Source: an uncultured Nitrososphaerales archaeon
Lineage (GTDB): Archaea > Thermoproteota > Nitrososphaeria > Nitrososphaerales > Nitrososphaeraceae
NCBI GenBank assembly: GCA_963709405.1
Contig: CAVPXM010000069.1
Location: 32,001-96,000, forward strand
Direction of reading: 5' to 3'
DNA: 64,000 nt
Below are positions 20,018 to 61,548 of the stretch, in pieces; the first letter of the stretch is position 1, and every line of letters begins with the position of its first letter. Under the pieces are notes generated by a model, which was not told the DNA's origin, made no database searches, and was given only the letters and a program-made list of their open reading frames with translations. The translations under genes and the position numbers were made by a program.

Positions 20018-20733
20018 CATCTACCATACAGACAGGCAGAGGGTGTAGTTATAGTTCATGCGAGTACTAAGGTACCATGCATACCAGATTATAGTACTAT
20101 TAGTAGACGTGTAAACAAACAGACTAGATATCAAAATCAATGAAAGATTAGGAAATAATATTGTCATTGCTTTGCTTTAGACAGCACTGGCATTAAAGTA
20201 GCTAATCGTGGAGAATGGATACGGCATAAATGGCATGTTAGAAAAGGATATCTAAAGATACATGTAGCAGTTGACATCAAGAGGAAAAGAATCCTGTCCT
20301 TGGAGGTAACAAGTGAAGAGGTACATGATGGTCAGATCTGAAAATAATAATCTGAAGGGTATATTGGCTGATGGTATGTATGATAGTAATAACAACTTTA
20401 GATACCTATCAAAGAACCACATTAAACCTGGCATAAAGACAAGAAGTAATTCCAAAGTCAAATCAACTAACTGTCACGCTAGGAATATGTCTGTAGTAAA
20501 ACAACACGCAAACTTCAAAAGATGGAAGCGTAGCGTGAGCTATGGATACAGGTGGTTGGCAGAAACGGCATTCTCTTCTATTAAAAGGATGTTTGGTGAA
20601 CATGTAACAGCTAGAAAATTTCCTAACATGGTAAGGGAGATCTTCCTAAAGGCAACTCTGTATAACATGTTCAATCGAATGACATAACCATCGGCATAAA
20701 TGAATTAAATCCTAATGGATCATGCAACAGAGC
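20018..20733 (+). mobile_element. IS5-family transposase relic (5'-truncated, frameshifted) with a surviving right end
   Basis: HLPYRQAEG, PDYSTISRR, DSTGIKVANRGEW, YLKIHVAVD, ADGMYD, YGYRWLAETAFSSIKRMFG. The putative right TIR atgcaacagagc lies at about 20722-20733. Confidence 0.85.
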
Positions 20734-21118
20734 AGCACAGCAGTAAATCGATTCAAGTTGTCTCCCGTAGGAGCAGCGGCGAGAGCAGTGCCTACATAAG
20801 TCTATCTAAGGATCCACTGATTGAATGGATTGAATGGATCATCCAACCTCCAGGCTTGCTGTCATCTAATCTATCTAGATAAATAACAATACTAATTCGC
20901 TTAAAAATGCCTGGAAATTGGAGTACCGAAAGTTACACATTCGAATAATTGAGAGTCATATTTCATTTGATTTGCATAGCCAATAATGAGAGAGCATCGA
21001 TGCTCGATCTTTACAGGAATGTGTTTTTTTGTTAGACAAGAAATAGAATATTATGCAATTGCAAGAAATTTACATATATCGAAGGTGTTAATATAATCCA
21101 GTACACACTGATTGGCAA

Positions 21119-21448
21119 ATGACTCGTTTTGATCTTCCTAGCAAGAAAGAATTAGATATGATAGATAGTAAAGAAAGAATGAATATCTTTAGACAGTATT
21201 TTGCAGCTAGTCGCTATGATCGCTTACTGATTCAGCAATGCTTACTTAGCTGTGCATATGACGAATCCAGTATATCTAGGGTCAAAGACCTGGAGAGAAT
21301 ACATGATGAGAATTATTACGATAAGGTGAAGCTTATTAGAGAATATGGCTTTATAGATGAATTTATTTTGGCAGTGAAGGAAGAAGAGCAGGCTATTCAG
21401 AAAATAATCGAGGCCTATGATAAGAGAATGAGGATGTCAAGTCTCTAA
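21119..21448 (+). CDS. Hypothetical protein
   Basis: Intact 109-aa ORF with a TATA-like ttaatataa about 25 nt upstream. Confidence 0.7.
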   Translation: MTRFDLPSKKELDMIDSKERMNIFRQYFAASRYDRLLIQQCLLSCAYDESSISRVKDLERIHDENYYDKVKLIREYGFIDEFILAVKEEEQAIQKIIEAYDKRMRMSSL

Positions 21449-21975
21449 ATCTTTACTTTAACTATGGTCTGAGTCAAAGGAGAGCCTATTTGGGATTGCC
21501 AGCATAGGCGGCGAAGCCAAGCCAAGTCAAGCTTTGAAACAGATATCCGCCTAATTCTCATTGATGAACTATGAAGTACAAAATAAAACTACAGTAAATT
21601 TAGTACCGATAAATTATGTATTAATGATATCAATTGGGGTATATCCTTATAGCTTTTCTATCATGCTTCAAACTGAGGCCTAGAAAAATGTTCATATTTA
21701 ATTTTTGCGGTCGTGGCAAGACATTCATCGAATGGGAAAAATTTGAATGCTGACTATTCTAAAAATGTCGAACCCGCACTAGTTTACCTGTGCCTCTATC
21801 AAAGTATTCACTATATGCTGTGTTTTATTAATTGTCCGATGCTCAGATAAGCGTGCCATGATTGACTAAGTGGGACAGAACGACGAATACGAGAGCTTTA
21901 TTAGTAACACACATTTAAAGCAACTAGAGCGAATTATTGTTATTCCTCCTTTCCTTACTTTATGCCTTTTGAAAA

Positions 21976-22880
21976 GGTAATACCTAAGAAGTTGGAACAG
22001 CTTTTACCATTATATTAGCCAGTAACCGGAAGATATCTTCGTTTCTCTGGTTAAATCTAAATTCCATTTCTTTAAGGTACAGGTGAAAGTACTGTTTGGG
22101 TACTCCTCGATAATGATACAGCCATGTCTTTGCATAACTCCAGAATCCTTCAATACCATGGATATCACTAGTATCTTCACGTACATATTCTTCCATTCGA
22201 TGAGCAATTATCTGATGTTTTCCGATTAGATCTAATGAAGCATATGCAGTATGGTCATCGGTATAATACAAGGAGCCCTTCTTAGTATGAAGTTTAATTA
22301 ATGGAATTAATGTATCATGTATTCTGTCAGATACAGGAAATGTGATGACCTTCCCATTTCTTTGATATATTCCAAATACTAGGTTTTACCTTCAGATCCA
22401 CCATCTCCATTTTCCTTTCCTATGCCCACCAAATAATGCTTCGTCTATTTCTATTTCTCCTGACAGTTTCTTCAGCTCCTTTAATTTCTGAAGTGATTCA
22501 TTGTAGATTGATTGTCTGAATACTCTGAATGTTCTTTCTATTGTGGCCAAGCTAAGTGGAACATAAAATCGGATTCTGTACGCTGGTACTCCAAGAGCAT
22601 AGAGATAGAGTAGGTGTGCTAGTATATCAAGTGAGAAATAAAACTCTCCAAATTTGTATCTGCAACGTTTGCATCCAAACCTCCTATCTTTAAGATGGTA
22701 CAACAATCGATATCCACATCTTGGACATCGTCTCCTTCCTTTCCATCTAGCATGACGAAAATATATACGGCTTTTTGTCACACTTCCAGCAAGTTCTATA
22801 GGACTAGATTCACGCACGCATCACGAATAGAGTACTAGAAATTATCCCTTATTATCTGTTGCAAGTTCTTGGGTATTACC
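21976..22880 (-). mobile_element. Complete IS1595-family insertion sequence (905 bp); transposase frameshifted
   Basis: TIRs ggtaatacctaagaagttggaacag (21976-22000) and ctgttgcaagttcttgggtattacc (22856-22880) match at 22/25. The 8-bp TSD tttgaaaa lies at 21968-21975 and 22881-22888. The transposase shows a Zn ribbon CPRCG..CKRC, EIEIDEALFGG, YYTDD, HGIEGFWS and YLKEMEFRFN. Confidence 0.95.
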
Positions 22881-30158: not shown

Positions 30159-32537
30159 ATGCCTAGTTCACGTTTGCTAAAAGGCCTGTTTGTTCCGTTG
30201 CTGGTATTTTTCTCGGTATCCATTGTATTGTTGATATCAACCCTTACGAATAGTAGCATTTTTACGCCGGGTTTTGCAAAATCTGCCGACCGAAAAATAT
30301 CGCTGACGTCATCAGGTGGGGGCGACGATCAAGGCCTCAGATCTAGAAATAATCAATTACGGAACGAGACTGAGCCTCCGTCAACATCACCGCCGTTGGT
30401 ACCTGAGCCACCGACAAAGAGTGGAACCGGTACGCTTACCCTCAAAAAAATTGTGGTTAACGATGGTGGAGGTAACAGAAGACCATCAGATTTTACAATT
30501 AATGTCGATGGAAATAATCCTACTCCACAATCATTTCCCGGCAGCTCTTCAGGCACATCAGTTGAATTAATCAATGGTAGATATTCAGTTACAGAAACCG
30601 GTCCATCTGGTTATACTTCAAACCCATCATCAGGATGTTCGGGTTCAATAAACCCAGACCAGGAGAGGAATTGTACGATAACTAACGTGTACAATAAGCC
30701 TGTCCCACCACCTGTAACCACTGGAAAAATAATAGTTACTAAACAGGTAATTAACGATGGTGGAGGTAACAGAAGACCATCAGATTTTACAATTAATGTC
30801 GATGGAAATAATCCTACTCCACAATCATTTCCCGGAAGTTCAGCTGGCTCCACAGTGACAATAAATCCTGGAAAGTATCAAGTATCAGAACAAGGCCCAG
30901 TATCTTCTCAATACGTGCCTGGTAAGTATACACCTATCTATTCAGCAGAATGCAATGGAGTTGTCAAAGCGGGCCAAACAAATAACTGTATTATCACGAA
31001 CAAGTATAATTCATTCATCCCAGGCCTGCTATCGAAATTAATAGTTACTAAAAAGGTAATTAACGATGGTGGAGGCAACAAAAGACCATCAGATTTCACC
31101 ATCACAGTACATGGAAATAGTCCTTCACCTGGGTCTTTCCCGGGAAGTTCCTCTGGGACCCACGTGGAGTTGAAGACAGGCAAGTACAGTATTACCGAAA
31201 CGGGTCCTACCTCTCGCTACACCACTGACTACTCAAAAGATTGTTCAGGAAATGCTAGTCCTAACTCGATCAAGAAATGTAATATTACAAATGTCTATCA
31301 GGAACCAGGACCAACTTCTAAATTGATAGTTATAAAAAATATTGTAAATGATCAACAAGAATCTTCAATAACCAAAAGACCATCAGATTTCACTATCACG
31401 GTAGATGGAAATAATCCTTCACCTAGGTCGTTCCCAGGAAAATCAAATAGTGGTATTTCAATTTCAATATATCCTGGTAGATATTCTGTGACTGAAAAAA
31501 CTCAATCAGGGTATACGGTAGACTACTCCACAGATTGTGAGGGAAATATAAAATCAGGGCAAACAAAGGTATGCATAATTACTAATGAAGTCACATCGCA
31601 ATCATTACCTATCCTAGTTACACAACCAACGATCAAGAATATTACTGGATTCTCCGTCCCATACGGAGTTGCAACGGATACTGAAAGTGGTAACGTCTTT
31701 GTGACAAACTTCGGCAGATTCAATACAACTGGAAGTGTATCAATAATAAATAGTTCTACTAACAATGTAACAAGTTCTGTCCTCGTCGCTAAGAATCCGC
31801 AAGCTGTGGCTTACAATTCTGCAAATGGTCTTGTATACGTCGCTAATCTCTTGTCAAATACTTTATCAGTAATCAATGGTACTACAAGCAAGGTGGTAAA
31901 TTCGATTCCCGTTGGCAAATCTCCTGGCAATAGTCCAAACGGAATAGACATTAATTCCATAAATGACACTGTTTACACAATCAATTCAGGATCAAACACC
32001 GTATCAGTAATAAATGGTACCAATAACTCGGTTAAAGGATATCTCTTGGGTTTCTTCACTCCATCTGGCGTTACATATAATCCGGATAATGATGCGATCT
32101 ATGTGACAAACAGAGGAACTAACGCGATATCTATAATTAACGGTACGACTAATGGCTTGATAAAAACTATTCCCTCAGGTGGCGCGTTACCCTCAGCTAT
32201 AGTCTATAATGCGGCAAATGGACTTGTCTATGTCAGTAATACTGGTTCAAATACCGTATCCGTTCTCAATACTACAACTAACAGCTTAGCAGGAATAATT
32301 GCAGTAGGTGCCGGTCCTAATGGTATTGCATATAATCCAAGCAACGGTAAAGTATACGTTGCCAATTCGATATCAGGAACAATTTCCTTCATAAATGGGA
32401 CAACCAATACTGTAAGTAAGACGATCACGATCGGGAAGATGCCTATCGGAGTAAGCTACAATCCAAGTAACCATGGCATCTATGTTGCAAACGCGGAATC
32501 AAATACTGTCACTGTAATTACTGAAAATGATCCCTAG
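30159..32537 (+). CDS. Secreted surface protein: four CnaB/SpaA(prealbumin)-like repeats plus a YVTN/YncE beta-propeller
   Basis: Signal peptide and Pro-rich linker; 4x [KxxVxKxVxNDGGG.RPSDFTIxVxGNxPxPxSFPG...YSVTE...C...CxITN]; C-terminal repeats P.GVAYN...YVAN..SNTVSVIN. Confidence 0.88.
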   Translation: MPSSRLLKGLFVPLLVFFSVSIVLLISTLTNSSIFTPGFAKSADRKISLTSSGGGDDQGLRSRNNQLRNETEPPSTSPPLVPEPPTKSGTGTLTLKKIVVNDGGGNRRPSDFTINVDGNNPTPQSFPGSSSGTSVELINGRYSVTETGPSGYTSNPSSGCSGSINPDQERNCTITNVYNKPVPPPVTTGKIIVTKQVINDGGGNRRPSDFTINVDGNNPTPQSFPGSSAGSTVTINPGKYQVSEQGPVSSQYVPGKYTPIYSAECNGVVKAGQTNNCIITNKYNSFIPGLLSKLIVTKKVINDGGGNKRPSDFTITVHGNSPSPGSFPGSSSGTHVELKTGKYSITETGPTSRYTTDYSKDCSGNASPNSIKKCNITNVYQEPGPTSKLIVIKNIVNDQQESSITKRPSDFTITVDGNNPSPRSFPGKSNSGISISIYPGRYSVTEKTQSGYTVDYSTDCEGNIKSGQTKVCIITNEVTSQSLPILVTQPTIKNITGFSVPYGVATDTESGNVFVTNFGRFNTTGSVSIINSSTNNVTSSVLVAKNPQAVAYNSANGLVYVANLLSNTLSVINGTTSKVVNSIPVGKSPGNSPNGIDINSINDTVYTINSGSNTVSVINGTNNSVKGYLLGFFTPSGVTYNPDNDAIYVTNRGTNAISIINGTTNGLIKTIPSGGALPSAIVYNAANGLVYVSNTGSNTVSVLNTTTNSLAGIIAVGAGPNGIAYNPSNGKVYVANSISGTISFINGTTNTVSKTITIGKMPIGVSYNPSNHGIYVANAESNTVTVITENDP

Positions 32538-33045
32538 CTAACGATGAACTTGTCTTGAATTCTAAAGAAATTTATTTTATTGAACTTTGTTCAATATTAG
32601 AATGCTTACGCTATGCCGGCTCACGCTCTGATTCTTATGACAGTAAAACCCGCCATCGGTTTCATAAATTGACTAATCCTTCAGAGTGATGCAGGATAAA
32701 TAGACACGATTTTAGTTCGGTCTGATTATCAAGTGTTAAGGTGCATAATCTAAGGATTTCGAGATTACGTTGACATCGAGTAACTAGGATGTGGGATCAC
32801 ATCTTCGCAATCTGGATGTGGTCTCAGTAGAAAGTGCTCTGGGGCATATTAAAGAGGAGAATTATCATCTTGGCAGAAATCGATCGGCAATTTTCGACCA
32901 ACCAAGATTATAAAGTTTTATTCACTATTCAAAAAAAGCACAAAAATGCGATTAACTCAGCTGGATTGTGAATATCTTTGTCTCGTGTATGAGTGAGTCT
33001 CTTCAGTGAGTAAATTCAATCAGCTCACATACGATCGTTAAAACC

Positions 33046-34229
33046 ATGAGGTTGATCATTCCAAAAAGGGTTCTCTTAGGACTAGTTGTTACGATGTTCT
33101 CGGTACTTGTATTCCTCTTGTCTCAGCTGAGTATGTTCCGCTCAGGCTGCGCGCCATCTTTACCCGTCATTACATGAAGAACGGTATATTCGATTGGTTA
33201 ATAAGCATAGGAATACTATGCAGGGTGAGCCGGCTACAGATATTGTAGGTGTAAGCTATTTTAGTGATGGACAAACCTTGAATTCCACGATTTGGCTTAT
33301 GGCCCCCTTTATTAGACAGCCTATTCAATACGATGCTTTGAATTGCGGTGTTATGGTTGATTCTGATTATGACAAGACAACTGGGGTTGGTGGTGTTGAT
33401 TACCAACTTGAAATTAGCTGGAAAAACAAAACCAAAACTTGGGATAAGGCGATTACAGAGTGGTCTACTTCCGGACACGATAAACTTCTACATGAAAATC
33501 GAAACTACACCGGGTTCTACCATAATGGGTCTTATTATGTCGCATTACCACTAGACTTGTCCACCATTCCATATCCTAATAAGTATAGGGTCGCGTTTTA
33601 TGCGGAGTCAGAAAAAGGTGGGAGGCTAACTACAGATTTTAGTAACTGGATAAACATTCCACCAGCAAATCTCGCTATCACGACATCTCCTAACCCTATT
33701 GTTGTAAGGCAGGGAGAGCAAAAAACCGTCGAAGTACGTTTGAATACGACGCAAGGGTTTGAACCCTTAGTTCATTTATCAGTAAATAACGTCCCAGGTT
33801 TAAATATGACTTTTAAGTATACCGCCATCCAGATACCTTCCCAGGGATTTACTAGTGTTCCATTAATAATAACTGCATCTAAAAATATCTCCGTATCGCC
33901 ATATACTCTATTGTTATCTACAAATTCCAGCTTTCCTACAGCGGAGTTTATTGGAGCAAATGTACTGAAACTCAGGATTACCAGGAAAAAGTCTACCTGA
34001 CTTCCTGACCCCGAAGGAAGAAATTTCGACTAGTCGAACAGTTTTGGTAGTAACGATGCAAGACGCGTTATCGGATATAGATCGGATAAGCGATTTTTGG
34101 AATAAGTTAGGGTCGCCCATATCATTTGTATATGGCATAGCAGCTGGTCTTTCACCATGGATTTTCAGTAAAGTAAAAAATAAATTAAAGAGACATGAGA
34201 GATGGTTATCTACAATTAAATCTGTTTGA
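33046..34229 (+). CDS. Secreted, C-terminally membrane-anchored hypothetical protein; frameshifted
   Basis: Signal MRLIIPKRVLLGLVVTMFSVLVFLL at 33046; core DIVGVSYFSDGQTLNSTIWL...Ig-like region; C-terminal TM FWNKLGSPISFVYGIAAGLSPWIF followed by a basic tail. Confidence 0.7.
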
Positions 34230-35091
34230 CATTCAAGTGTAGATTTCACCGGACTAACTAACTAATACTATTCCTAGACAGGAGCTATCAGTGTTTATGT
34301 AGAAACAACAGGACAGATGATGAGTGTCCCACCATTGGAAATTCAACCAATAAATGCGAGAGCGAATATTAAAGCCCTGTCTTTCTCCAATACCCTCTGA
34401 GCAAAGTGCTAGCTTAACCATAGTCGATCTAGTTGTCTACAATCCAATGCCAACGCCTTCTGCATATTACTTCTTTTGTAGGGCCGCATGACCTGGCGTG
34501 ATTATCTAATACTATTGATAAGATAGGTTTTGACTCCACTTTTTCTATTCATGTTCGTCTATATCCATCAAGAATATCTGGGATATCTTAAGGGTAATAA
34601 ATTTAGTAATCAAATTAATATCCAATAAAGAATCAACCAGTTTAAAAGATTAGCTTTTAAAAATTCAGCACCATATATCTAAGCCGGAGACAATCTTAAA
34701 AAAGGTATTTGACGTTGAAATATCCTTTACACGGTAAAGATAAACGTAACAAATGAACTTTAAAATGACTTTGAGATATGAGTTCTCATATAATGGTAAT
34801 ATTGAAGTATATCTGTCTCGATGATGTGATTTGGCATATGACAATAAAAAAATCATTATATAGAATTATGCCTATGGAGCAAATCGAAATTGGTGAAGTT
34901 TCTTCGCAAGGACTTGCAGAACTTAATAATTGTGAAAAGGTTTCGCCAGTAATTGATTATGTTGTGATTATTATCAATTCTATGGCTTTGAGCCACTTAA
35001 AGAATCTGTCGTGGATTAGTTGCTCCGAACTAAGCCCTAATCTGTATCGAGTATTACCAGAAATTTGGAAGGCTTTCAGCCTGGAGTAATA

Positions 35092-36725
35092 ATGAAATTA
35101 TTTGGGAAAATCTATCTGATTGCCTTTTCAAAACCCAGAAGAACTTCTGTACTTTCTATCCTATCATATATCGGATTAGTTATCATTTTGATTGGATCAA
35201 TTTCCGATCGTGTACCGATGAGTTTTGGACAAGGTAATGGCGGTAGTGGTGACGGAGGTAATGGCGGTAGTGGTGACGGAGGTAATGGCGGTAGTGGTGA
35301 CGGAGGTAATGGCGGTAGTGGTGACGGAGGTAATGGCGGTAGTGGTGACGGAGGTAATGGCGGTAGTGGTGACGGAGGTAATGGCGGTAGTGGTGACGGA
35401 GGTAATGGCGGTAGTGGTGACGGAGGTAATGGCGGTAGTGGTGACGGAGGTAATGGCGGTAGTGGTGACGAGGTAATGGCGGTAGTGGTGACGGAGGTAA
35501 TGGCGGTGCGAATGCTATCATGGCTAAACATGGCGGGCCACAATGTCATCTAAGTCATCACGGTCACACTGATAGAGAAAGGTGTGTAGATGGCGGATCA
35601 CCGGTGTGTCCTGATGGTTCACAGCAAGGTCCTAAAGGTTGTACATGTCCTGACGGTTCACATCCAGATGGTAATGAATGTCCTACATGTCCTGATGGTT
35701 CACAGCAAGGTCCTAAAGGTTGTACATGTCCTGATGGTTCACAGCAAGGTCCTAAAGGTTGTACATGTCCTGATGGTTCACATCCAGATGGTAATGAATG
35801 TCCTACATGTCCTGATGGTTCACAGCAAGGTCCTAAAGGTTGTACCATGTCCTGATGGTTCACAGCAAGGTCCTAAAGGTCTGTAATATGTCCTGATGGT
35901 TCACATCAGAAGGTCCTAAAGGTTGTACATGTCCTGATGGTTCACAGCAAGGTCCTAAAGGTTGTACATGTCCTGATGGTTCACAGCAAGGTCCTAAAGG
36001 TTGTACATGTCCTGATGGTTCACAGCAAGGTCCTAAAGGTTGTACATGTCCTGATGGTTCACAGCAAGGTCCTAAAGGTTGTACATGTCCTGATGGTTCA
36101 CAGCAAGGTCCTAAAGGTTGTACATGTCCTGATGGTTCACAGCAAGGTCCTAAAGGTTTGTACATGTCCTGATGGTTCACAGCAAGGTCCTAAAGGTTGT
36201 ACATGTCCTGATGGTTCACAGCAAGGTCCTAAAGGTTGTACATGTCCTGATGGTTCACAGCAAGGTCCTAAAGGTTGTACATGTCCTGATGGTTCACAGC
36301 AAGGTCCTAAAGGTTGGACATGTCCTGATGGTTCACAGCAAGGTCCTAAAGGTTGTACATGTCCTGATGGTTCACAGCAAGGTCCTAAAGGTTGTACATG
36401 TTTAATAGATTCAATATCGGATGGTAGCGGCAAATCCTCATGCATAAAAATTCTAGTCTTCGATTCCAAGGGTAACGAAATCGCTTCCTCGTTGGCAGGG
36501 GGAAATCTTCACTTAAAATTGGTGCAAGATAACTCGATTAGGGTGAGTTTTGTTCCCATGATCAAAGCCTGTTCTGTAAAGGTCGATTATTTCCAGTCCT
36601 TAGATAATGGCGCGCCAGCCGGAGGCAATAACAACGATCAGACGAGTTATCGGATCAGCATGAGTAGCGATAATCCTAACCCGGTACATCTGAAGTATCA
36701 TGTGAGGTGTAATGCAGGATCGTGA
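35092..36725 (+). CDS. Secreted Gly-rich / Cys-rich tandem-repeat protein (several 1-nt frameshifts inside the repeats)
   Basis: Signal MKLFGKIYL...[11 protein letters not shown]; (GNGGSGDG)x~11; His-rich linker; ~20 CPDG repeats; ~110-aa C-terminal domain ending CNAGS*. Confidence 0.75.
35233..35507 (+). repeat. 24-bp tandem repeat ggtaatggcggtagtggtgacgga, 11 copies plus a partial
   Basis: Counted directly; the 10th copy lacks one g. Confidence 0.95.
35607..36398 (+). repeat. 39-bp tandem repeat tgtcctgatggttcacagcaaggtcctaaaggttgtaca (~18 copies) with two 42-bp variant units
   Basis: Unit A encodes [13 protein letters not shown]. Unit B (35646-35687, 35766-35807) encodes [14 protein letters not shown]. 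There are no unique spacers. Confidence 0.95.
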
Positions 36726-36738
36726 GGTTTCGATTCAT

Positions 36739-38380
36739 ATGACAAGTAATAATTTCCATGGCGGAATAATAGGGTTGAGATCCATCATTTTATTTATGGT
36801 TGTCCTGGTTTTGTTAGGAAATATTATCACGGTGAATGCACAGCCAGCCGAGAATAATGGTGTAGAGGGCGTTATAACGATTAACAAAAATCCTATAACG
36901 CATCCCAGTGATGGCCTTCCAGGAGAGCCTGTCGGACCTTCTTCAACCCAGCCCCAGGGAACATTCATACAGCCTATCGATGTTAATCAAACAAAAAAGG
37001 TAAATGTGGAGGTAGGGGGTAAAAAAATACCCTTCCAAGATATTGTAGTCCTAAAAGACGAAATTGCCAATAATACCCTGACATTGAAAAATACCTTTAG
37101 CGCTCTAACAATGTTAGTTGAGAATTTCGGTGCGGAAATTATCTATACATACAACGGTACAGTTGCAGGATTTGCATTCAAAGCACCAAATCAACAAATA
37201 TTTAATCAACTGACAGATGTTCTTAGGGTTGATCCGCGTGTTAGAGAAGTCGAACAGGATCGGACCGTAGTACCATTTTCTGAGGAATCATCAACTGGGT
37301 TACACAGGATAGACGCAATCTTCGCACCTGCAGATTCAAAAATAGGATCCACAGGCGTCAACTCAGATATTGCTATTATCGATAGTGGTGTAGATCTAAG
37401 TCATCCTGACCTTAACGTATTTAGAAATACATCTGCAATAATTCCTCAAAACGTGACTTCTATTCACAATACATTAGCTGCTAGCAATATAGATTTAGAG
37501 AAGATTGGACTCAATACTCTAAATTTGGGAAAGAATAGAACTGCATTTTATCCTCCTTTTTCTCAGAATATTAATTCAGCCGGAGACGATGAATGCGGCC
37601 ATGGTACTTCAGTAGCTGGCATTGCTGCCGCGAAACACAATTCCTTTGGAATAATAGGAGTAGCGCCAGGAGCAAGGTTGTGGTCTATTAAAGTACTTGA
37701 CTGGAATAACGCAACTAAAAGATGTGAAGGTTCAATATCTTCTGTAATTGCAGCTATAGACTATGTGACAAAACATGCAAACCAGATTGATGTCACAAAC
37801 CTAAGCCTAGGATGCAAGTGTAATTCATCAGCATTGGATGAAGCAATCATAGGTCTGTAGGCGCAAATGTGACGTATGTAGTTGCAGCAGGCAATATCCA
37901 CGCTGATGCTTCATCGTTTTCGCCGGCTAACAATACAGAAGTAATCACTGCTTATCTGCCATTGCCGACCAGGATGGTAGATGTGGAGCAACTGGAATTC
38001 CTCTATGGGTTGATGCTGGTAATAGTTCAGGGTTTTCTGATGATGATACCTTTGCTCGATTTAGCAATTATGGCTCGGTAGTAGATATCGCGGCACCAGG
38101 AGTTAAAATTAATTCGACATCTGCAAACGGGACATATGCACTGACTAGCGGTACCAGCATTGCTGCTCCCTTCGTGACAGGTGCTGCTCCATTGTATAAA
38201 TCACTGAATCCACATACATCTTTATTGGATATACGTGACGCATTAACAAGTTCAGGTTCCTCGCTCAAAACCATTTGTGACGGTTCTGGTCGAGGCTACT
38301 TTAAGGATGATCCTGACCAGAATCCTGAGCCCCTGTTGGACCTTGGAAATCTTCTCAAAATGAAAAATAAAGCATCCTAA
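36739..38380 (+). CDS. Secreted subtilisin-like S8 serine peptidase with I9-like propeptide; frameshifted
   Basis: Signal peptide; propeptide IIYTYNGTVAGFA...VREVEQD; triad IIDSG / HGTSVAG / GTSIAAP (~38150-38170); oxyanion AAGN; FSNYG..VDIAAPG. Frameshifts at about 37855 and 37950. Confidence 0.88.
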
Positions 38381-38567
38381 CGCTTGGTGTATCATGTAAT
38401 AGACTCACCAGAAATCTGAAAATGAAAATGCCTAATCTCGATACCTGAGATATGCCGTATTTCTATTCCGTCAATTTCTGCGCGAACTATATAATATATT
38501 TAAAATTATAAGGTCAGATATTTCTTAAATATTGATACACTACTACTACTACTAGTGAAAAGATTAA

Positions 38568-38995
38568 TTGGAGAATATGATCTATAATTCACACTCTACA
38601 ATTACTATTGCACCATTAGTTATTGCAGCATTTGTTATATCCCTTACACTCTTATTTCCAGGACATAAACGGATGGAATCCATTTCTGATAACCGAAGCA
38701 GAATTAATATTACTTCCGCCTCACTCGCTAGTTCAGGCCAACAAAAGGTAGAACCATTACAGCCAGTTACCTCGTATACCCTGCCGACTGCTAACCTAGT
38801 CGCACAGTTGTTGCTTGAGTCGTCGCCTGAACTTGTTGCTCAGATTCCCCTAGACCATTTAGCACAGAAAGACATTGTCGAAGTGTTTAGAAATATCCCC
38901 AAGGATAAGATTGTTACTATTATAAAAGAAATACCTCAAGAGAGGTTTGCTGAATATTGAGTAAGCTGCCAGAAGCAAGATTCGTAACGAAATAA
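38568..38995 (+). CDS. Hypothetical membrane-anchored protein with a helical C-terminal region
   Basis: N-terminal TM (IAPLVIAAFVISLTLLF); helical region IVEVFRNIPKDKIVTIIKEIPQERF; probable frameshift near the end. Confidence 0.55.
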
Positions 38996-40357
38996 AGAAT
39001 GTTATGAGCCAACCAGCACATTAGATATAAAGACTTATTACCCCTTAGGATGTCTCAAACAGTTTCTACACCAAGACGTATAGATTGCAAGACACCCATG
39101 GGAAATATCCGAACTGCCTGCGTTGCCTAGTATATAGGACAACTATTACAAGCGAATATCGATTTTTGCTAGCCTGATTTTGGTTACTATGGATTTGTTC
39201 CTTGTTCTACGCAAAATATTGTTATCGTCACATCTGAGGTGAAAAAATTTATTATTTTATTTACCCATTACGGTGCCTTGAGGATAATGGAGTCACTGGA
39301 CTCATATGTCTTAATTCTTCATGTGAATGTAATTTTTGACTGGAGCTAATCTGAATGGTAACTTGGTATATCAAAGATTAGGATGGAGATTCAAATTTGC
39401 CTGCAAACCTAAAAAAGTTGTAACAGTTCAACGTCAGTTCAAGGATAATGGATTTCCAAAAAAATAAGCTCCTGAAATTCTGAAATCAGAACACTTTTAA
39501 GTTGTGACTGATTCTATAAGTGGTAATTCAAGATATGTCGGCTCGATCTCAATTATCATGATTTTGCACTCGATATCAGGAACAATTTCCTTCATAAATG
39601 GGACAACCAATACTGTAAGCAAGACGATCACGATCGGGAAGATGCCTATCGGAGAAGCTACAATCCAAGTAACCATGGCATCTATGTTGCAAATGCGGGA
39701 TCAAATAATGTCTCTGTACTTACTGATAACGATCCCTAGATAACAATCAGGAACCGGAGACTGATCTCACAAATATAATCGAGTGTTTAATTCTAGCCTC
39801 TAATTGTTTTGTCGCTGGCGATCAGCCTTGCCTTCTATGCAATTAAAACCCCCAAAAATTGTTTTGGAAATCTAAGTCAGTGACATATTTTAATAGTTAG
39901 TTTGTGGAACGTCAACATGGTCGCTTTATCATAAATGTTATCACCTATGAAAATGAGTTTCTGAAAGAAATGCTGTGCAATTCAATATCTTTAGTGTAAT
40001 TTTTCGTAATTTACATACTATTTATCTTGTCAACAGCATAAGCTAACTGTGATACCATATGTCCAGCAAAAAGAAAAAGTCATGACTATCATCCACTACT
40101 CTACAAATTGCCCCTCTTGCAGTGAGTATTGAAGAATTGATACACTCTCTCGCATGGCTCGAACCTCCTCGGATAGTATGACCAACTGGGATGGAAACAT
40201 TAGAAATAATTACCCTAATACCGAAGCCTTCGACCGATTAAGCTACGCCGGCAGCCGAATCAATTACCTTTGAATCTTGACCTGGCTGGGATTGGGAAAA
40301 CATAAGAATGAGAACCCTTTTAGTTCATGTTATTCTATAAAATGCAATTGAAGATAG

Positions 40358-41644
40358 ATGCCTGATGTCAATTTTCATGATTTTACGCTCGAGTCGTTAT
40401 CAGAACACAGCCGCACAGAATCCAAAAGAAAAGGAGACATGGAGGCAGAATTCTTTGAAGTGATATCAAACCCTCTCAATACTGAAGAAATTCTGCTAAA
40501 TCTTGCTAAATCTTTACAGAAAGAGGTCTTGTATCTTGTACCAAACGATATGGCCTTAGTGAGGGTAAATAAAATAGGCCTAATAGACCTGCTTATTCAG
40601 GCATCACAACAAAGGAATGTGAAAATAAAGATTATCTGTCCCCTTTCTGACATCAATTCAGATATAGTAAGAACTATAATAAATCAGGCTCCTGACATAA
40701 AGATTATTCCAGGAAAGAATACGTCATCCGGTATATTTATTGCTGATGATCTAAAGATGTTAAGGGTAGAAATTAAGGACGCAGACGCCAGTGAATTCTC
40801 CAAGGCGATTGGTTTTGCTCTCTATTCTAATAGCAAGGCCAGCGTCAGCTCGTTCAAGATGTTCTTTGAATTGCTATGGAATGCTTGCATCCAAAATGAG
40901 GAGCTGATGAGAATCGACAAAATGAAAGACGAATTTATCAATGTCGCAGCGCACGAATTCAGAACACCTATACAATCAGTGTTGGGTTACCTTGAACTCG
41001 CAAAGGCTGACCCAGAATACAATGCGATCGACAATAAAAGAGGTGGGCTAATTGATGCAGCATATCGAAATGCAGTCAGACTTCATAGGCTAACTAAGAA
41101 TATACTAGAAGTAACCAGGATTGAGAGCCAGACCTTGTATTTGAATAAGAAAATATTTGATTTAAAAAAGCCAGTATTAAGCATTGTTAACGATCTTCAA
41201 AATAATACTGCCAAATTGTCACGGAAATACGGTAGTAGCGATACCACATCTAATGAATTTATAGTGAGATTTCCCGATGCTCAAGGTGAGGATGAGTTAA
41301 ATGTTGATGCTGATGAAGAGAGAATTACTGAAGTTCTGGTAAATCTGTTGGATAATGCCATGAAGTTTACTAAACATGGAATAATAACAGTTACGACTGC
41401 AAAAGATAAAGTTAGAAATCAAGCATATGTAAGAGTAAGAGACTCTGGCAGTGGCGTACATCCAGAACTGATGACACGGTTATTCACTAAATTCGCAAGC
41501 AAATCTTCGGGAGGAACTGGGCTTGGACTATATATCTCTAAATCCATCATTGAGGCTCACGGAGGTAAGATATGGTTTGAAAACAATCAAGAGGATAGGG
41601 GATCTACTTTTGGATTTAGTCTTCCCTTGCAAGAAAGACGGTAG
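40358..41644 (+). CDS. Cytoplasmic sensor histidine kinase (single N-terminal domain, HisKA, HATPase_c)
   Basis: AAHEFRTPIQS, NLLDNAMKFT, DSGSG, GTGLGLYISKSIIEAHGG. Confidence 0.93.
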   Translation: MPDVNFHDFTLESLSEHSRTESKRKGDMEAEFFEVISNPLNTEEILLNLAKSLQKEVLYLVPNDMALVRVNKIGLIDLLIQASQQRNVKIKIICPLSDINSDIVRTIINQAPDIKIIPGKNTSSGIFIADDLKMLRVEIKDADASEFSKAIGFALYSNSKASVSSFKMFFELLWNACIQNEELMRIDKMKDEFINVAAHEFRTPIQSVLGYLELAKADPEYNAIDNKRGGLIDAAYRNAVRLHRLTKNILEVTRIESQTLYLNKKIFDLKKPVLSIVNDLQNNTAKLSRKYGSSDTTSNEFIVRFPDAQGEDELNVDADEERITEVLVNLLDNAMKFTKHGIITVTTAKDKVRNQAYVRVRDSGSGVHPELMTRLFTKFASKSSGGTGLGLYISKSIIEAHGGKIWFENNQEDRGSTFGFSLPLQERR

Positions 41645-55735: not shown

Positions 55736-56227
55736 TCATAAATTAATGAATTCGGCAGTCCTTGTTTCTGTATTAAAAATCGCCGCAGTGGCATTGTACC
55801 CAAAGAACCATCCATTTGCAGTTCCTGGATTAATTAAAATGGTCTTTCCAACCTGCAGCTGTTCCTTTTTATGGGTATGGCCACAAACAACTATGTCGTA
55901 CCTACCTGATTGAACTAACGATAGCTTTTTTTTGGCATTAGTCCCATGATAGACTGCGAACAATACGTCATCTTGCTCAATTTCACAAAACTCACCTTTA
56001 AGCCGGCCTCCTATTTCTTCGAAGCTCAATGACAGTCTTTCTTTCTCAATGTCGTTATTTCCGAGTACTCCAACCAAATTAACGCCTTTGAATGATTTCA
56101 CTGATTCTGGACTCACGATATCGCCTGCATGAATAACAAATTTGGTATCTCTATCATTACATATTTTCACGAATCTCTCGATATTTTGAGTGTTGTCGTG
56201 GGTATCAGAGATCAATCCTATTTGCAT
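55736..56227 (-). CDS. YfcE-like metallophosphoesterase
   Basis: ISDTHD, IHAGD, GNND, YHG, GHTH, INPG. Confidence 0.92.
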   Translation of the reverse strand: MQIGLISDTHDNTQNIERFVKICNDRDTKFVIHAGDIVSPESVKSFKGVNLVGVLGNNDIEKERLSLSFEEIGGRLKGEFCEIEQDDVLFAVYHGTNAKKKLSLVQSGRYDIVVCGHTHKKEQLQVGKTILINPGTANGWFFGYNATAAIFNTETRTAEFINL

Positions 56228-56344
56228 TGCACAACTTTACACGATTTCAACATTTTTAATCGTACCTATCAGGACTGGAGTCCAGATTTACTCTCCCTTC
56301 ATATTCGTACTTACTCGATTTTCTAGCATTTGTAGATCTTTACT

Positions 56345-57487
56345 TCACCCTGTAGAATCAGTTTCTTTTATTGTTTCGGGAGAGAGATATGCATTTCGAG
56401 CAATAGTCGGGGACTCAATTTCGGTCCTGATTATTCTTGTGACTGAGCGTATCTGCGCTGCATAATTTTTGATGAGTCGAGTATATCCTGATCTTATCTT
56501 TTCAAAGCCATTCTGATCCATTTTTGAATTCTCAAAACAGCTTTCGATAATGTTGTAAAGTCTTTGTATTAGCGTGATTTGACTGGTGTCGAACTTTGAC
56601 ATTTTATCGTGTCTTTATTTTTATCGCTAAATAAGACGTCTTTTGCCTTGCTCTCGACTTCTGCATTATTGGTAGGTAAATGACTAACTTTTCTAGGATA
56701 ATTTTCGACAATAAATATATTCTTATCGTTTCTTGGTGATACATGCAATACTTCTCTCATCTGCGTATTGCTAAGTAAACTACCATCCCAACCAAGTACT
56801 CCAACGTCTACTTCTATCCATGGGAACCCGTATAGGTGATAACCAGCGCTAGCCGGAATGTGCTTTGCTTCGACTCGCATATTAGTAGCGTCGTTTATTA
56901 ATGGCTTTGCTGTCATTATATTTACTGCAGTTATTACAAGACGAAAGTAATACCTCTGGCAATCTTTCCTTGGTTGCAGCAGGGTTGAGTTTCTTATAGT
57001 CTATGTATTTGTCAAGTGTATTGGCTAACGGCCAAAGTTCGTATAAGTAAGTGCAAATTCTAAGATCAATATAATCATTTTTTTTGAGACGAGTTCCCAA
57101 TTTTGTAGCCATATGGGAATGAACATCTTAGAGAACCCAAAGAATAAAGCATTTGTCGAAGCTGAGGAAATCCTTTTGGATTCAATCGTTTTGGACCTCA
57201 TATCATTGTCTAAAACAAAAATATCAGGAATAATATTAGGACAGCTGTCTGCTAATTCCGTCCAAAAATCTTCAAAGTCCCTTTCTGGATAGTCACTATT
57301 ACTCCAAAATAGTGGCCGTATTCACGGCTCCGATCGAAGTCCCCGGCCCTATGTCTATTCTTATTCGTTTCTTTACCAACGCTTTAAGTACTCAACACGC
57401 AAAGGCTCCCAAAGAACCACAGCCCTGCATAACCAGGTCGTTTGTTACATTTATTCTTGTGGTTCTCCTTGAGGTGTTCAATTGCAT
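56345..57487 (-). pseudogene. Patatin-like phospholipase, degraded
   Basis: LVMQGCGSLGAFAC*VLKAL (oxyanion motif), GTSIGAVN (GxSxG), WDGSLLSNT (DGG-like). Contains an in-frame stop and several frameshifts. Confidence 0.8.
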
Positions 57488-58334
57488 TTCGGTGAAATTC
57501 TCATTTTCTATAATGGGATAGTCATATTTAGATGTGGGTCTCATTGTGTATGAATATTTCTATTATCAATATCAACAGCCACGTTGGAGTATAAATGCTC
57601 AATCCGCCAACTACAATTGTATATTGATATTGATTCAATTTCTACAATTATATATTATGGTAATAGTAATATAATTAAACAGGCAATTGATGTTATTACA
57701 TTTGGTCAGATTAGGCATCAAACATTGAAGAGAAATTGTACTAAATCTTGTAACATCTCACAATGCAACACTAATGATCTCGTTCATCGGAAATTTGTAT
57801 ATGATGTCGATAGAAATAGGACGAATTTGTCATTTGTTATCTTCCTTTGCTGCTCTCCTGCTCTAATATAGTTCCAGATGTGTCGGAAACGGCTCTGATG
57901 AACACGAGGGCCAAAACGGATTATTAACTAGCCATATCGAAAATAAAAAAGCTTAGTTTCGTTCCCACTAGATATTATATTTTGTATTGGGTATGATGGT
58001 GATTGTAATCCAACGATGCAAGCGATCGAAGACATACTAATTAATGTGACAATTGATATTTCCTAGCAAGAACTACCGAGCAGGGATTTAACGGCAAATC
58101 TTTGATTTTGCGCGCGGGATTTCGCAATCATAATATGCAATCTAATGAGATCTGTCTTGTATAATTGATTGATCTTCAGGCCTGGCTGCTGTCAGATCAT
58201 CTCCACTGAATAAACTTGTTTGTCTAATCTTGCACAGGCTTGTACTACTGTTGTTAGGATTTCGAATGTTATCGTAAGTTTCAGCTATATGAGCAAAGGA
58301 ATAATATTATAGGGATTTTATATACTGATATCCA

Positions 58335-58682
58335 ATGGCTAAATTAGAAGATTCTGGTCAAATTATCTACCTGCAGTATAAGAACCTAGAGGACATGCTT
58401 AAGGTCATACTCTTTTCGGCCCAATCAGCTCTGGGTCTGACACCTATGCTTTATAGCATTAAATATACGAGCAATAGCATACTTTTTATTCAAACAGGGA
58501 TTGCTAACGGTGCGGTAGTCCATTATCTTGTGATGCGGGATGCAAGACCAGAACATAAATACATAGAATTGAAGCGATTAACCGGAGAATTCAGATTTGT
58601 TGATAGTATCGGTACGGATACCATGTCGCTCTATATCCCAGTCTTAGAACTTGAGACGTCTACCCTTAAGTTTCCCATTTGA
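58335..58682 (+). CDS. Conserved hypothetical protein
   Basis: Intact 115-aa ORF. Confidence 0.7.
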   Translation: MAKLEDSGQIIYLQYKNLEDMLKVILFSAQSALGLTPMLYSIKYTSNSILFIQTGIANGAVVHYLVMRDARPEHKYIELKRLTGEFRFVDSIGTDTMSLYIPVLELETSTLKFPI

Positions 58683-59376
58683 CTCTACCAATTATTCTTC
58701 TTTTGTGTGAGTGTATTACACCAGCAAAAAAAGTTGCTATGAATAGATATAAGTATAATGAGAATGCGTTCTAAGGCGATATTAATTATATTGACCATTA
58801 GAGCCTTTGACGTACGAGTAGATTATATATCAACTACAAACCTGACCTCAGCCAAGCAGTTCAATTATAGAATCCATTTGATATAGTTGTTGATGTTATC
58901 AAATGACAGTTAATACTAGTGTATTTAGTATCGAAGTATGTGAAAATGCATCATATGTATGTGCAATTAATTAGATTAATGAATTTGCACACCTGGATTT
59001 AGCCGAGTCGAGCATGTGGAATCGATAGTTTAGGACTTTATGAGAGTAACACTATTCAAAGATGAGAATATCCAAGAGAAAAAGACTAAAGTCGACTCGC
59101 CTTCTAAAAAAATCATCCTTTTAGTCGCCTATAAGATTTTTCGGACATCCCTTAGCGAAATTATGAACCCATTTTATAATAATTCTTCAAATAATATGAG
59201 ATTCTTTGAATTCGCCATTACAGAGCTAGTCTGGTGTATCAGGCATATCCATATTCCATTTCTCAATTTGGATACGCATGACCTTTGCTTAGCATTGCAT
59301 GCCAATTCCAGAATTCATTATGAACAATACTTGGTGCATCAAGAATAAATATTCTGTTAATATTACGGATCTATCA

Positions 59377-59616
59377 ATGAATAGCGAGATACGAAGGCCG
59401 TGCAGCAGGTGCGATGGTTCGATGCTAGGTGAAATACAACCTATACCAAAGAAAATTCCACTACCGATACCTCTTAAGCCATCATTGTCGATCGAGAAAT
59501 ATTTGCCGAATATAACGCGGGGTTATGATTTTTATACTGTGTTCATATGTTCATCATGCGGCTACATGGATGTTTATTTTACAAAAGCGAAGCAAGATAG
59601 CAGGATTATGAAATAA
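59377..59616 (+). CDS. Small zinc-ribbon protein
   Basis: MNSEIRRPCSRCDG...FICSSCGYMDVY. Confidence 0.65.
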   Translation: MNSEIRRPCSRCDGSMLGEIQPIPKKIPLPIPLKPSLSIEKYLPNITRGYDFYTVFICSSCGYMDVYFTKAKQDSRIMK

Positions 59617-59856
59617 ATAGATATGAGGAGAACGACAACTTAGCTTTGCCAATATTACTATCCTGAGAGCGTTGTTCCCCATTTCGCAGACTTAATCTAT
59701 TTGCCCCGGTCGATCCGTCATCGCAGATTAATCGTGACATCATAGCTATTTAAGACAATATCAGTGTTATCTAATCAGTACGCACCAATTCGTAAGGCAA
59801 ATCTATATCAGAGGCGATGTAAATTATTATAGGACATCTATAAGGCGATAAAAAAG

Positions 59857-59979
59857 ATGTTAAAGAGCTGTCCTATATGTAGAAACTGTGGCCTGAAAAA
59901 GTTTAGGATACTAAGTCGATCTGAAAATATCATCTTGCAATGTCTTGGATGTGATCAGGTAATGTCAATATCCGACTGA
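59857..59979 (+). CDS. Very small zinc-ribbon protein (40 aa)
   Basis: MLKSCPICRNCGLKKFRILSRSENIILQCLGCDQVMSISD*; below the ORF-track cutoff. Confidence 0.45.
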   Translation: MLKSCPICRNCGLKKFRILSRSENIILQCLGCDQVMSISD

Positions 59980-60312
59980 GTTATTTACTTGTTGATTGAG
60001 CACTAAATTTCACTAATTATCACAATGATCGAGCTTGTGAGAGCCACTTGCGACAGTTAGATAGTAGTATCGTTACGAAATATACGATCTTATAAAAGGC
60101 ATTTAATTTACTACTGGCATTAGTCGAACACTCAGAGTAATAATTTAATCGACCATTTTTATGGTAGGGCAGATGAATTGCTTTATAAGATGCCGCAGCA
60201 TCCTACAATTGTCTCCTCTAAGCCAGGAACGAATAGAAACCGATTGCCGATCTCTGTAGCTCGAATGTAATCTTTTCATGGATCATAAATCAACAAAAAT
60301 ATTTCATCATGG

Positions 60313-60359
60313 AAAAATTAGAAAAATAAATAATAGAATTATTTATTTTTCTAATTTTT
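60313..60359. repeat. Perfect 22-bp inverted repeat with a 3-nt loop
   Basis: aaaaattagaaaaataaataat-aga-attatttatttttctaattttt. Confidence 0.9.
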
Positions 60360-61017
60360 ACTTCTTACCTTTTGATCCTTTCTTCACAGATTTTTTCTTT
60401 GCTCCATTAACTTACCAATGTGCCATGTTCAATATATAAGGCTTGTCATATTGATTATGACCGTGTGTAGTTTCTTTTTGAGGAACAAAAATTTCGTAAT
60501 CGATTTTGTTTGCCATTGCTAGAATATTTCAATCGAGATTTTGTCAAGTAGTGCACTTTCGTTTCTTGCAGATGACATTTCATTAAAGGAGATCAAGAAT
60601 ATGTTGATATAAGATCAGTCTGAAATTATTAACTTGTACTGATTTGTTTGCCTCAGGGCGAATGTATCTTTCAGAAGCGGAGATACTACTCGATGAAAAT
60701 GCTAATTAGGATAATAGTCCGATAGGAATGAATTGGTGTAGAAAAGGTACAGTAATCGTACGGTTGCTTTCCTCAGAATAGTGTTCTTAGAATATTAATC
60801 TACAGCATTCACTTCCAAAAGTCGTAGACAAATACTGGCACGAAGCAAGTATGTACAACTCATGACGAATTAATTGTTACCCTTGGCACAAACCAACCTA
60901 CTAAATAAGATCGCAAATTAACCTGACTCTTTTCTAATTTTAGTCATTAATCAGCTGGGCTACACCTCATCTAAATTCTATCAGCTAAACATTTAGTAGG
61001 ATGTTTGTGTTAAACAT

Positions 61018-61548
61018 ATGATGAGACTCTACAGAGCGATAATCGATAGGTATGTTATTAATGATGTGAAATGCTGCAAATTGTTGTTTAAGGATGGAAT
61101 TACTACGCAAGAGCTTGTTATAGAGAAGGTTGAAGGAATAATCAAAGGCGTCTGGATCGACGCCAGAGTCCAGAAGCCTCTAGTGCCTGGACTTGGCAGC
61201 GCATGTGGGATTCTAAAGAATTTGGATCAATATCAATATATTGTATGTTCAGAAATTCGATCAATTCCTGATTCCAATCCTTACAAAAAAGATTTGCAGA
61301 AATATAGAATTACTATAATAGCGGCATTCGCCAAATTTGCTATGATAATCCATTCAAGAGCCGAAATTGTCCTGCGGGAGTGGATTCGATTTGCTCAGTT
61401 ACTATTAGAATTTATCTCCGACACTCTCGCTAGGGCTAGACTTGGACATAGCTATGTTGAATCTAACAACAATTCATCCAGTTCCATGTTTGACTACTTT
61501 GGCATCCCAGAGAAAGAAGTCGAGTATTTATTACAAGAGATCTACTAG
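61018..61548 (+). CDS. Hypothetical protein
   Basis: Intact 176-aa ORF. Confidence 0.65.
   Translation: MMRLYRAIIDRYVINDVKCCKLLFKDGITTQELVIEKVEGIIKGVWIDARVQKPLVPGLGSACGILKNLDQYQYIVCSEIRSIPDSNPYKKDLQKYRITIIAAFAKFAMIIHSRAEIVLREWIRFAQLLLEFISDTLARARLGHSYVESNNNSSSSMFDYFGIPEKEVEYLLQEIY

Follow-up and report, generated by a model that had tools for sequence, protein, structure and literature searches.

The window analysed here is a 64,000-nt stretch of the genome of an uncultured ammonia-oxidising soil archaeon of the Nitrososphaeraceae (G000:C69:32001-96000; the assembly has 4.83 Mb in 100 contigs, with 37% G+C). Between window positions 30159 and about 39113, five gene-like units follow each other on the plus strand, resembling genes for a surface protein (gene 1), an anchored Ig-like protein (g2), a Gly/Cys-repeat protein (g3), a subtilase of peptidase family S8 and an anchored helical protein (g5). 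The initial annotation of this DNA had taken all five together for one dedicated module for adhesion or biofilm matrix. Following our comparisons, gene 1 is a native, conserved and intact surface protein gene, the sole intact unit among the five, and the other four units probably belong to an inserted module (the cassette) that has decayed beside it.

The insertion became apparent from other genomes of the genus. We searched 30 relatives at the nucleotide level and aligned the contigs retrieved, which gave six congeners for comparison (G001-G006). The orthologs of gene 1 share the same context of histone-deacetylase-like, P-II and LysE genes in all six, and none of the six carries the cassette 3' of gene 1. 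In G001, G002, G003 and G006, gene 1 is followed after about 415-433 nt by the histidine kinase gene that in the window lies beyond the cassette. In G005, gene 1 is directly followed by a 257-amino-acid (aa) open reading frame (ORF) without the kinase, and in G004 it is followed by other DNA, the cassette of that genome being on a different contig. Because four congeners have gene 1 near the kinase and none has the cassette there, and because a 179-nt direct repeat and a 5' fragment of the kinase gene mark the junction, we read the sequence from 32546 to 39747 as a 7.2-kb insertion that is specific to the source genome among the congeners compared.

The decay became apparent from the reading frames. 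Besides 11 indels that disrupt the frame, the cassette has lost 504 nt and acquired a premature stop, and consequently this copy, as judged from its sequence, is most likely non-functional. The five plus-strand genes with hydrophobic N-termini of the initial annotation are present as five such units (the N-termini were judged by eye from the translations, without a signal-peptide predictor), but only gene 1 is one open frame. The idea of a dedicated module holds for genes 2-5 but not for gene 1 and, the copy being pseudogenised, there would be no working matrix module in the source genome. Genes 2-5 form a linked, co-directional and tightly packed set whose predicted products are secreted or membrane-anchored, and since this set recurs in other lineages, its clustering exceeds chance. 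The features of the region are collected in Table 1.

Table 1. Features between gene 1 and the histidine kinase gene, in window coordinates
Feature	Position	Strand	Description
Gene 1	30159-32537	+	792 aa, one open frame; N-terminal hydrophobic segment, four SpaA_2 domains, YVTN/NHL beta-propeller
Direct-repeat copy a	32367-32545		last 171 nt of gene 1 and 8 nt past the stop
Spacer b1	32546-32933		between gene 1 and the cassette
g2 pseudogene	33046-34229	+	signal segment, two beta-sandwiches, C-terminal membrane anchor; three frames
g2-g3 spacer	34230-35064		835 nt; 73% identity to G004 over 796 nt
g3 pseudogene	35065-36725	+	signal/transmembrane segment, two arrays, C-terminal domain; four stretches, 5 frame-disrupting indels
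S8 subtilase pseudogene	36712-38380	+	I9-like propeptide; 2 frameshifts; three frames
g5 remnant	38568-38960	+	130 aa; N-terminal transmembrane segment, MgtE_N-like helical end, premature stop
c'	39458-39573		diverged copy (90-116 nt) of the histidine-kinase upstream region and 5' end
Direct-repeat copy a'	39570-39747		displaced 3' fragment of gene 1
Histidine kinase	40358-41644	+	native right-hand neighbour of gene 1 in 4/6 congeners

Junctions of the insertion

The pieces of this region stand in the order gene 1, foreign-type intergenic DNA, cassette, kinase 5' fragment, gene 1 3' fragment, native intergenic DNA and kinase. The two copies of the direct repeat, a and a', are 93.9% identical over 179 nt, the identity being 99% over the initial 85 nt and 90% over the final 93 nt. 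Within the left spacer b1, positions 32724-32820 resemble the intergenic region between gene 1 and the kinase of G003 (71% over 98 nt, E 2e-8). At the right end, the kinase fragment c' is fused directly to a', and it is nearer to the kinase start of G003 (79.6%) than to the window's own kinase start at 40307-40392 (73%). Position 39739, which had been given as the end of the locus, does not close the fifth gene and is in fact the stop codon of the duplicated 3' fragment of gene 1.

These junctions would be consistent with a donor related to the source strain, in which the cassette was already located between gene 1 and the kinase and whose DNA was then imported. Perhaps a homologous crossover within the 3' end of gene 1 was combined with an illegitimate join in this import, a route that we take to be homology-facilitated illegitimate recombination. 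An alternative order of events, with a tandem duplication first and the insertion after it, agrees less well with the very unequal divergence of the duplicated parts.

Gene 1 and its native neighbourhood

The earlier description of gene 1 as a CnaB-like/YVTN surface protein agrees with the Pfam results. SpaA_2 (PF19403) was matched in four stretches (122.2 bits, E 1.4e-35), and a propeller was matched by NHL (65.5 bits), YNCE (49.6 bits) and Lactonase (40.9 bits). Seven genes of the native neighbourhood are open, namely those for the histone-deacetylase-like protein, P-II, LysE, gene 1, the histidine kinase, the 257-aa ORF and a response regulator. The Pfam architecture is as expected for six of them, and the 257-aa ORF is without a Pfam family.

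The region 3' of gene 1 is a rearrangement hotspot in the genus. At the G004 locus (L010, G004:C38), the kinase, the 257-aa ORF and the response regulator are gone after gene 1, and the sequence resumes at the equivalent of window position 44101, after a piece matching G000:C40. Elsewhere in the window, positions 20027-22392 and 56227-61018 are long stretches without an ORF of at least 140 aa.

The four genes of the cassette

The Gly and Cys repeats reported earlier for g3 are tandem arrays. A GNGGSGDG array occupies 35232-35507 (24 nt x 11.5), and an array of 13-residue Cys repeats, with twenty near-identical units, occupies 35607-36401 (39 nt x 20.1). A C-terminal domain of about 100 aa follows at 36402-36722. 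One G is lost at the end of the 24-nt array, near 35470 (-1), and four of the 39-nt units have 40, 41, 41 and 40 nt, which together makes five frameshifts in g3. Phase variation through slippage of the repeats was considered and rejected, since the lengths of the two repeat units are divisible by 3 and no frame-breaking indel lies in a simple tract.

Pfam gave no match on the g3 pieces. The C-terminal domain is common to G004 and to two genomes of other genera, G111 and G070, and it is rare, with 9 matches at E <=1e-3 in 1.84 billion representatives. We modelled the last in-frame piece of g3 in the window (6 repeats and the C-terminal domain) with AlphaFold2, and obtained a mean predicted local distance difference test score (pLDDT) of 56. 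The repeats had values of 29-49, and the C-terminal domain, with beta structure, had 60-84. Such a model neither supports nor contradicts a solenoid or a fibre. With the Cys repeats modelled at this low confidence, the fibre or cross-linked polymer of the initial annotation is not supported.

The S8 protease proposed earlier is confirmed by Pfam, as a broken gene, and its start overlaps the g3 stop by 14 nt. The PF00082 match is split, with 62.0 bits for profile positions 6-133 in frame 0 and 45.8 bits for positions 183-272 in frame 1 (cut-off 21.8). Compared with G002 and G004, the gene is 1 nt short near 37847 and has 2 nt extra near 37951. The translation contains DSGVD, HGTSVAG and SGTSIAAP, which are presumably the Asp, His and Ser catalytic motifs, and also AAGN. 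Inhibitor_I9 was matched with 18.0 bits in the window, below the cut-off of 21.2, and with 26.8 bits, above the cut-off, in a metagenome relative (L053). Intact relatives have 551 aa in G111 and 578 aa in G070. We tallied the families of the cassette in 151 Nitrososphaeraceae genomes; the unpublished genome G050 is counted in the g2, g5 and S8 tallies and the unpublished G088 in those of g2 and g5, and no locus-level claim is built on either of them. The S8 subfamily of the cassette, full-length or broken, was found in 5 of the 151 genomes, and S8 paralogs with a match in the catalytic domain only were found in 89 at E <=1e-60. Among the listed genomes that consist of one contig, none gave a full-length match to this subfamily.

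The frames of g2 comprise the signal (33046-33177), the body (to 34000) and the C-terminal anchor (to 34229). Against four intact orthologs, the window copy has indels of +1, -2, -7, +1 and -3, and four of these are frame-disrupting. The intact g2 of G004 has 385 aa, and its AlphaFold2 model (pLDDT 83.8, 22-row alignment) is composed of an N-terminal helix, a beta domain at 38-207, a beta-sandwich at 210-343, a disordered linker and a C-terminal membrane helix. The predicted Ig-like sandwich and C-terminal helix of this ortholog agree with the C-terminally anchored Ig-like protein of the initial annotation. The domain at 210-343 aligned with macroglobulin MG domains, with PapD-like domains and with S-layer domains of SbsC and Sap (Z of about 12, root-mean-square deviation 2.2-2.5, about 100 residues). 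As far as the model goes, this match of the second domain is a generic Ig-like one. Foldseek with the g2 model also gave generic multi-domain Ig-like matches, with a TM-score of about 0.2, and Pfam gave no match on g2.

The g2 protein belongs to a large multi-copy family, matched in 91 of the 151 genomes. One partial g2 from another Nitrososphaeraceae metagenome-assembled genome (MAG), P0002, is an intact allele whose C-terminal half is identical to the window. In its alignment to window positions 33131-33997, the last 157 aligned residues are 100% identical and the first part about 69%, and this step in identity suggests recombination between alleles. The g2 copy of G002 has no spacer or g3 after it at the nucleotide level. 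In the window, the spacer between g2 and g3 contains no convincing ORF (Pfam found nothing for the ORF at 34778-35089), and a long leader, a regulatory stretch or the remains of a gene are all conceivable there.

The g5 remnant in the window lacks a 504-nt central part, and homology to the g5 of G004 continues to about 39113. In G004 the gene is intact and encodes 318 aa (L009:13465-14418), of which residues 75-210, approximately, are the central domain missing from the window. This central domain belongs to a very common family of small secreted or anchored proteins of about 200 aa, present in 118 of the 151 genomes, many of them with several copies, and without a Pfam name. The MgtE_N/FliG_C-like helical end of g5 was matched weakly, with 29.5 bits in G004 and 27.5 bits in L053. 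An Atlas search gave DUF7482 as a lead at 0.80, which Pfam did not confirm, and otherwise unnamed Nitrososphaerota clusters below 0.85.

Recurrence of the four-gene set

Another copy of the cassette is that of G004, where a block corresponding to window positions 32934-39113 is found with 75-85% identity. In this copy g2 and g5 are intact, whereas irregularities occur in the array of g3 and a -1 of its own, at a different position, affects S8. Between S8 and g5 of G004 lies a 780-nt element (L009:12623-13398, G004:C16), and weak inverted arms flank it. The source genome G000 has at least 11 near-full-length copies of this element with 72-79% identity on 10 contigs (including C21, C60, C18, C61, C55 and C33), plus partial copies, and it looks like a miniature inverted-repeat transposable element or a repeat derived from an insertion sequence. 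Upstream of the G004 cassette, on the minus strand of the same contig (L009:5522-6453), two overlapping ORFs resemble a frameshifted tyrosine recombinase.

Open copies were found outside the genus. In G111 (contig C297), of another genus, the end of a Cys-repeat protein is followed by S8, a g5 of 262 aa and a g2 of 380 aa, all of them open. In G070, of a third genus, there are a TSP3-repeat protein, a cadherin-like protein with the g3-type C-terminal domain, and an overlapping S8 gene. We also scanned metagenomes, using as query the N-terminal part that is specific to the S8 subfamily of the cassette, and 10 loci were returned. Two of them, L053 and L054, are one locus, with a repeat protein of at least 874 aa, an S8 of 992 aa, a g5 of 196 aa and a g2 of 396 aa. 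The repeat protein of this locus has 16-residue Cys repeats together with Big_1/Big_3_5, and the protease carries a VWA domain, all of these being domains of the kind met in adhesins. Locus L059 has S8, g5 and g2, L058 has S8 with two g5-like genes, and six other loci have S8 only. In 7 of the 8 metagenome loci with a visible upstream side, an ORF for a secreted repeat or Ig-like protein ends within about 60 nt of the S8 start.

Conservation of gene order had been proposed as one check on the five-gene module. Genes 2-5 were found linked in G004, G111, L053/L054 and L059, but gene 1 is unlinked from them in all six congeners. The order of the set is g2-g3-S8-g5 in the window and g3-S8-g5-g2 in G111 and L053. 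In the intact modules, the repeat protein is large, fast-evolving and secreted, with Cys-pair repeats, Gly- or acid-rich arrays, and Ig-like, cadherin-like or TSP3-like domains, and often with a conserved end domain of about 100 aa. Its gene is abutted or overlapped by that of a subtilase with an I9 propeptide, and the two remaining members are the small g5, anchored at its N-terminus and with a MgtE_N-like helical end, and g2, with two beta-sandwiches and an anchor at its C-terminus. The only Pfam names in the four-gene set are S8, I9 and a weak MgtE_N, and no description of the set was found in the literature searched.

Decay or assembly error

A number of observations weigh against the reading of an intact native gene 1 beside a decayed insertion. 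The source genome is a MAG of 100 contigs. Part of the stretch is present in seven DNA runs from four soil studies, with no RNA run among these seven, and our comparison, with four runs that all consist of contigs, covered positions 36450-41000, from the last part of g3 into the kinase gene. The soil contigs of the four runs represent several close haplotypes that are 99-100% alike and differ at the indel sites. The contigs of runs X1 and X2 are without the 2 extra nt at 37951, which heals one of the S8 frameshifts. Past 38681, all four runs share the same sequence, different from that of the window, and the deletion junction of the window between 38681 and 38682 was found in none of the four. 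The a/a' repeat is a branch point of the contig graphs, spanned there by overlaps of only 30 nt, and so it is the MAG assembler that puts the cassette between gene 1 and the kinase. Outside this locus, an S8 or g5 gene was located beside a g2-family gene in 1 of 17 others examined, and the C-terminal domain of g3 is not evident in L053. With several haplotypes present, some of the lesions could be consensus errors of a mixed-strain assembly.

The X1 contig, of 3660 nt, matches 36450-39599 almost exactly, apart from four differences. Besides the 2 nt missing at 37951, it has one further single-letter gap, 61 nt in the gap between S8 and g5 (38481-38541) are swapped for 4 other letters, and 504 extra letters are present between 38681 and 38682, where the g5 of the window is truncated. 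The junction of c' and a' at 39570 is crossed in X1 and X2, by a 30-nt overlap at the branch point. A contig end before 39570 was considered as a strain with an empty site and rejected, as it is gene 1 sequence (32337-32366) mapping onto the duplicate. For another contig end, after 39741, no match was obtained in the window, the genome or the collected loci. Because the soil contigs differ at the lesion sites, close strains with less damaged copies exist.

It follows that an assembly artefact has to be weighed, in which the cassette would be intact here or elsewhere and the frameshifts, the 504-nt gap and perhaps the repeat joins would be mixed-strain errors. The differences among nearly identical soil contigs at 37951 and 38681, the absence of the deletion junction from the four runs and the branching at the a/a' repeat all point in this direction, and the lesions cluster in a strain-variable region. 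However, slips in homopolymers do not account for the indels (among them are -7, +2 and the loss of one A from GCAATACAT), and the seven flanking genes are clean. The G004 copy has been damaged independently elsewhere, with the -1 in its S8, its irregular g3 array and the 780-nt repeat element, and intact copies do assemble in other MAGs and in metagenomes. The sequence words of the junction of c' and a' occur in X1 and X2, and the intact g2 allele P0002 is identical to the window over its C-terminal half. We therefore consider an artefact unlikely, and retain the reading of a native gene 1 beside a decayed insertion.

Possible role of the module

With regard to what an intact module does, its gene content may point to protease-matured surface display, which we offer as a tentative reading, possible but short of likely. 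The subtilase would mature or release the repeat protein on the cell surface, where this protein would be on display as a variable adhesin or as part of a coat, with g2 and g5 as its membrane partners. We infer from this an adhesion or matrix role of the module.

Some bacterial systems offer analogies. The filamentous haemagglutinin (FHA) of Bordetella is a large repeat adhesin that is matured by the subtilisin-like protease SphB1, and the cassette likewise has a candidate large repeat adhesin and a dedicated subtilase. However, FHA/SphB1 consists of bacterial two-partner secretion and an autotransporter protease, and its homology to the cassette is limited to the S8 domain; in the cassette the genes are adjacent and there are two membrane-anchored partners. 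The tapA-sipW-tasA operon of Bacillus subtilis unites the genes for a secreted structural protein, for a protein with an anchoring or accessory task and for a processing peptidase of its own, and this logic is the same as that of the module suggested in the initial annotation. SipW is a signal peptidase, whereas the S8 of the cassette is a subtilase. TasA fibres have been demonstrated, whereas fibre formation is neither shown nor predicted for the cassette.

The closest archaeal precedent, as outlined in PMC5744192, is the tetrabrachion of Staphylothermus marinus with STABLE, a subtilisin-family protease on the surface that is proposed there to cleave a precursor. As in the cassette, an archaeal surface protein is paired with a subtilisin-family protease, and a large secreted repeat or Ig-domain protein whose gene adjoins that of the protease, as would suit an adhesin with a dedicated subtilase, was indeed found. 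From the same outline, tetrabrachion is a coiled-coil stalk forming an S-layer and its protease is physically bound; in the cassette no coiled coil was seen, the putative partner is a Cys-repeat, Gly-repeat or Ig-domain protein, and the pairing is one of adjacent genes. The lineages also differ, tetrabrachion being from the Desulfurococcales and the cassette from the Nitrososphaeraceae.

Among ammonia-oxidising archaea (AOA), an adhesion region induced in biofilms has been described in Nitrososphaera viennensis (NVIE_000940-001020) and Nitrosopumilus maritimus (Nmar_0455-0459) (PMC12448741). According to that description, large adhesion proteins stand beside putative surface, aggregation and Ca-binding proteins, irregularly across genomes. 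The adhesins have 1000-3000 aa, and neither 'protease' nor 'peptidase' appears as a word in the paper's main text. Nevertheless, with this region published, the earlier remark that no equivalent had been described in AOA was too strong, as far as a likeness by description can tell.

A different role for the protease is suggested by the extracellular S08A subtilases of Thaumarchaeota, which PMC6790972 pairs with serpins and reads as nutritional, a sign of mixotrophy. They belong to the same peptidase family as the S8 of the cassette and are likewise predicted to be extracellular. The cassette subfamily differs from those outlined there in having its own N-terminal region and in being located beside a repeat-protein gene, g5 and g2. 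By analogy, the S8 could be a secreted or surface-held nutritional protease supplying peptides, and its neighbours would hold it and not be its substrates. The protease bound to the tetrabrachion of S. marinus is proposed to have a feeding role (PMC5744192), and the VWA of the L053 enzyme is a docking-type domain. On the other hand, tight coupling to a fast-evolving repeat gene would be more typical of an enzyme with a dedicated substrate, and the rarity of the subfamily (5/151), compared with that of the general S8 paralogs (89/151), also speaks against a general feeding enzyme. We regard the nutritional explanation as improbable, and surface display remains our preferred reading of the module.

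The set could also travel as cargo on an integrative mobile element with insertion sites in or beside chromosomal genes, and what it does would then be incidental to its mobility. The cassette is patchy among close relatives, its contexts differ between G000 and G004, its gene order is permuted between the window and G111/L053, and it is flanked by the 179-nt direct repeat. The broken integrase-like ORFs just upstream of the G004 cassette matched a PHROG integrase at E 3.7e-4, a lead only. However, Pfam detected no integrase domain in these ORFs, and the G004 cassette has no flanking repeats around it. The 7.2 kb of the insertion hold no integrase, transposase or other long ORF: no further ORF of at least 100 aa was found in 32546-39747 beyond the pieces described, and Pfam detected no integrase among 10 pieces scanned from it. 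Neither tRNA genes nor Rfam families were found in the window. The cassette identity of 75-85% between G000 and G004 resembles that of the flanking core genes (71-82%), and therefore there is no sign of a recent transfer between the two. The right junction is a kinase fragment and not an att-like site, and the flanking repeat is a fragment of a gene. Mobile cargo is improbable as an explanation.

The working five-gene operon, which would build an adhesive matrix or fibre from an adhesin, an anchor, a cross-linkable polymer, a maturation protease and an anchored helical protein, is very unlikely. Its units are co-directional with hydrophobic starts, the Gly and Cys arrays are real and the g3 stop overlaps the S8 start, but only one of the five is unbroken, in the congeners gene 1 stands apart from the others, and the Cys-repeat part has no confident fold. 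Scarcely credible is a g3 serving as a multi-copy peptide precursor that the subtilase cuts into 20 small Cys peptides, as in multi-core natural products or fungal kexin-processed repeats: the twenty near-identical 13-residue units, the overlapping dedicated S8 gene and the repeats without a confident fold would suit it, but the counterparts in G070 and L053 hold cadherin-like, TSP3-like and Big domains and not short cores, the cassette has no gene for a modifying enzyme, and g3 begins with a membrane/signal segment and not with a cytoplasmic leader.

Significance

For the window itself the result is mostly corrective, pointing to a native adhesin-like gene with a probably dead accessory insertion, and not to a new matrix operon. 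There is still a four-gene set, rare among soil Nitrososphaeraceae, with a core formed by a variable repeat protein and its own subtilase. Perhaps this set is an undescribed, strain-variable display module of some soil AOA, in which the subtilase matures a hypervariable Cys-repeat protein that g2 and g5 hold. Such a module would be gained, moved, diversified and lost between close strains, as are surface structures under pressure from phages or grazers, and the window copy would be a snapshot of its loss; in this full form the idea is speculative and rather unlikely. If a role in surface display or adhesion is true, the set would contribute a protein component to the known means of attachment and aggregation in soil ammonia oxidisers, and its patchy, decaying distribution would be that of a trait varying between strains that share a soil.

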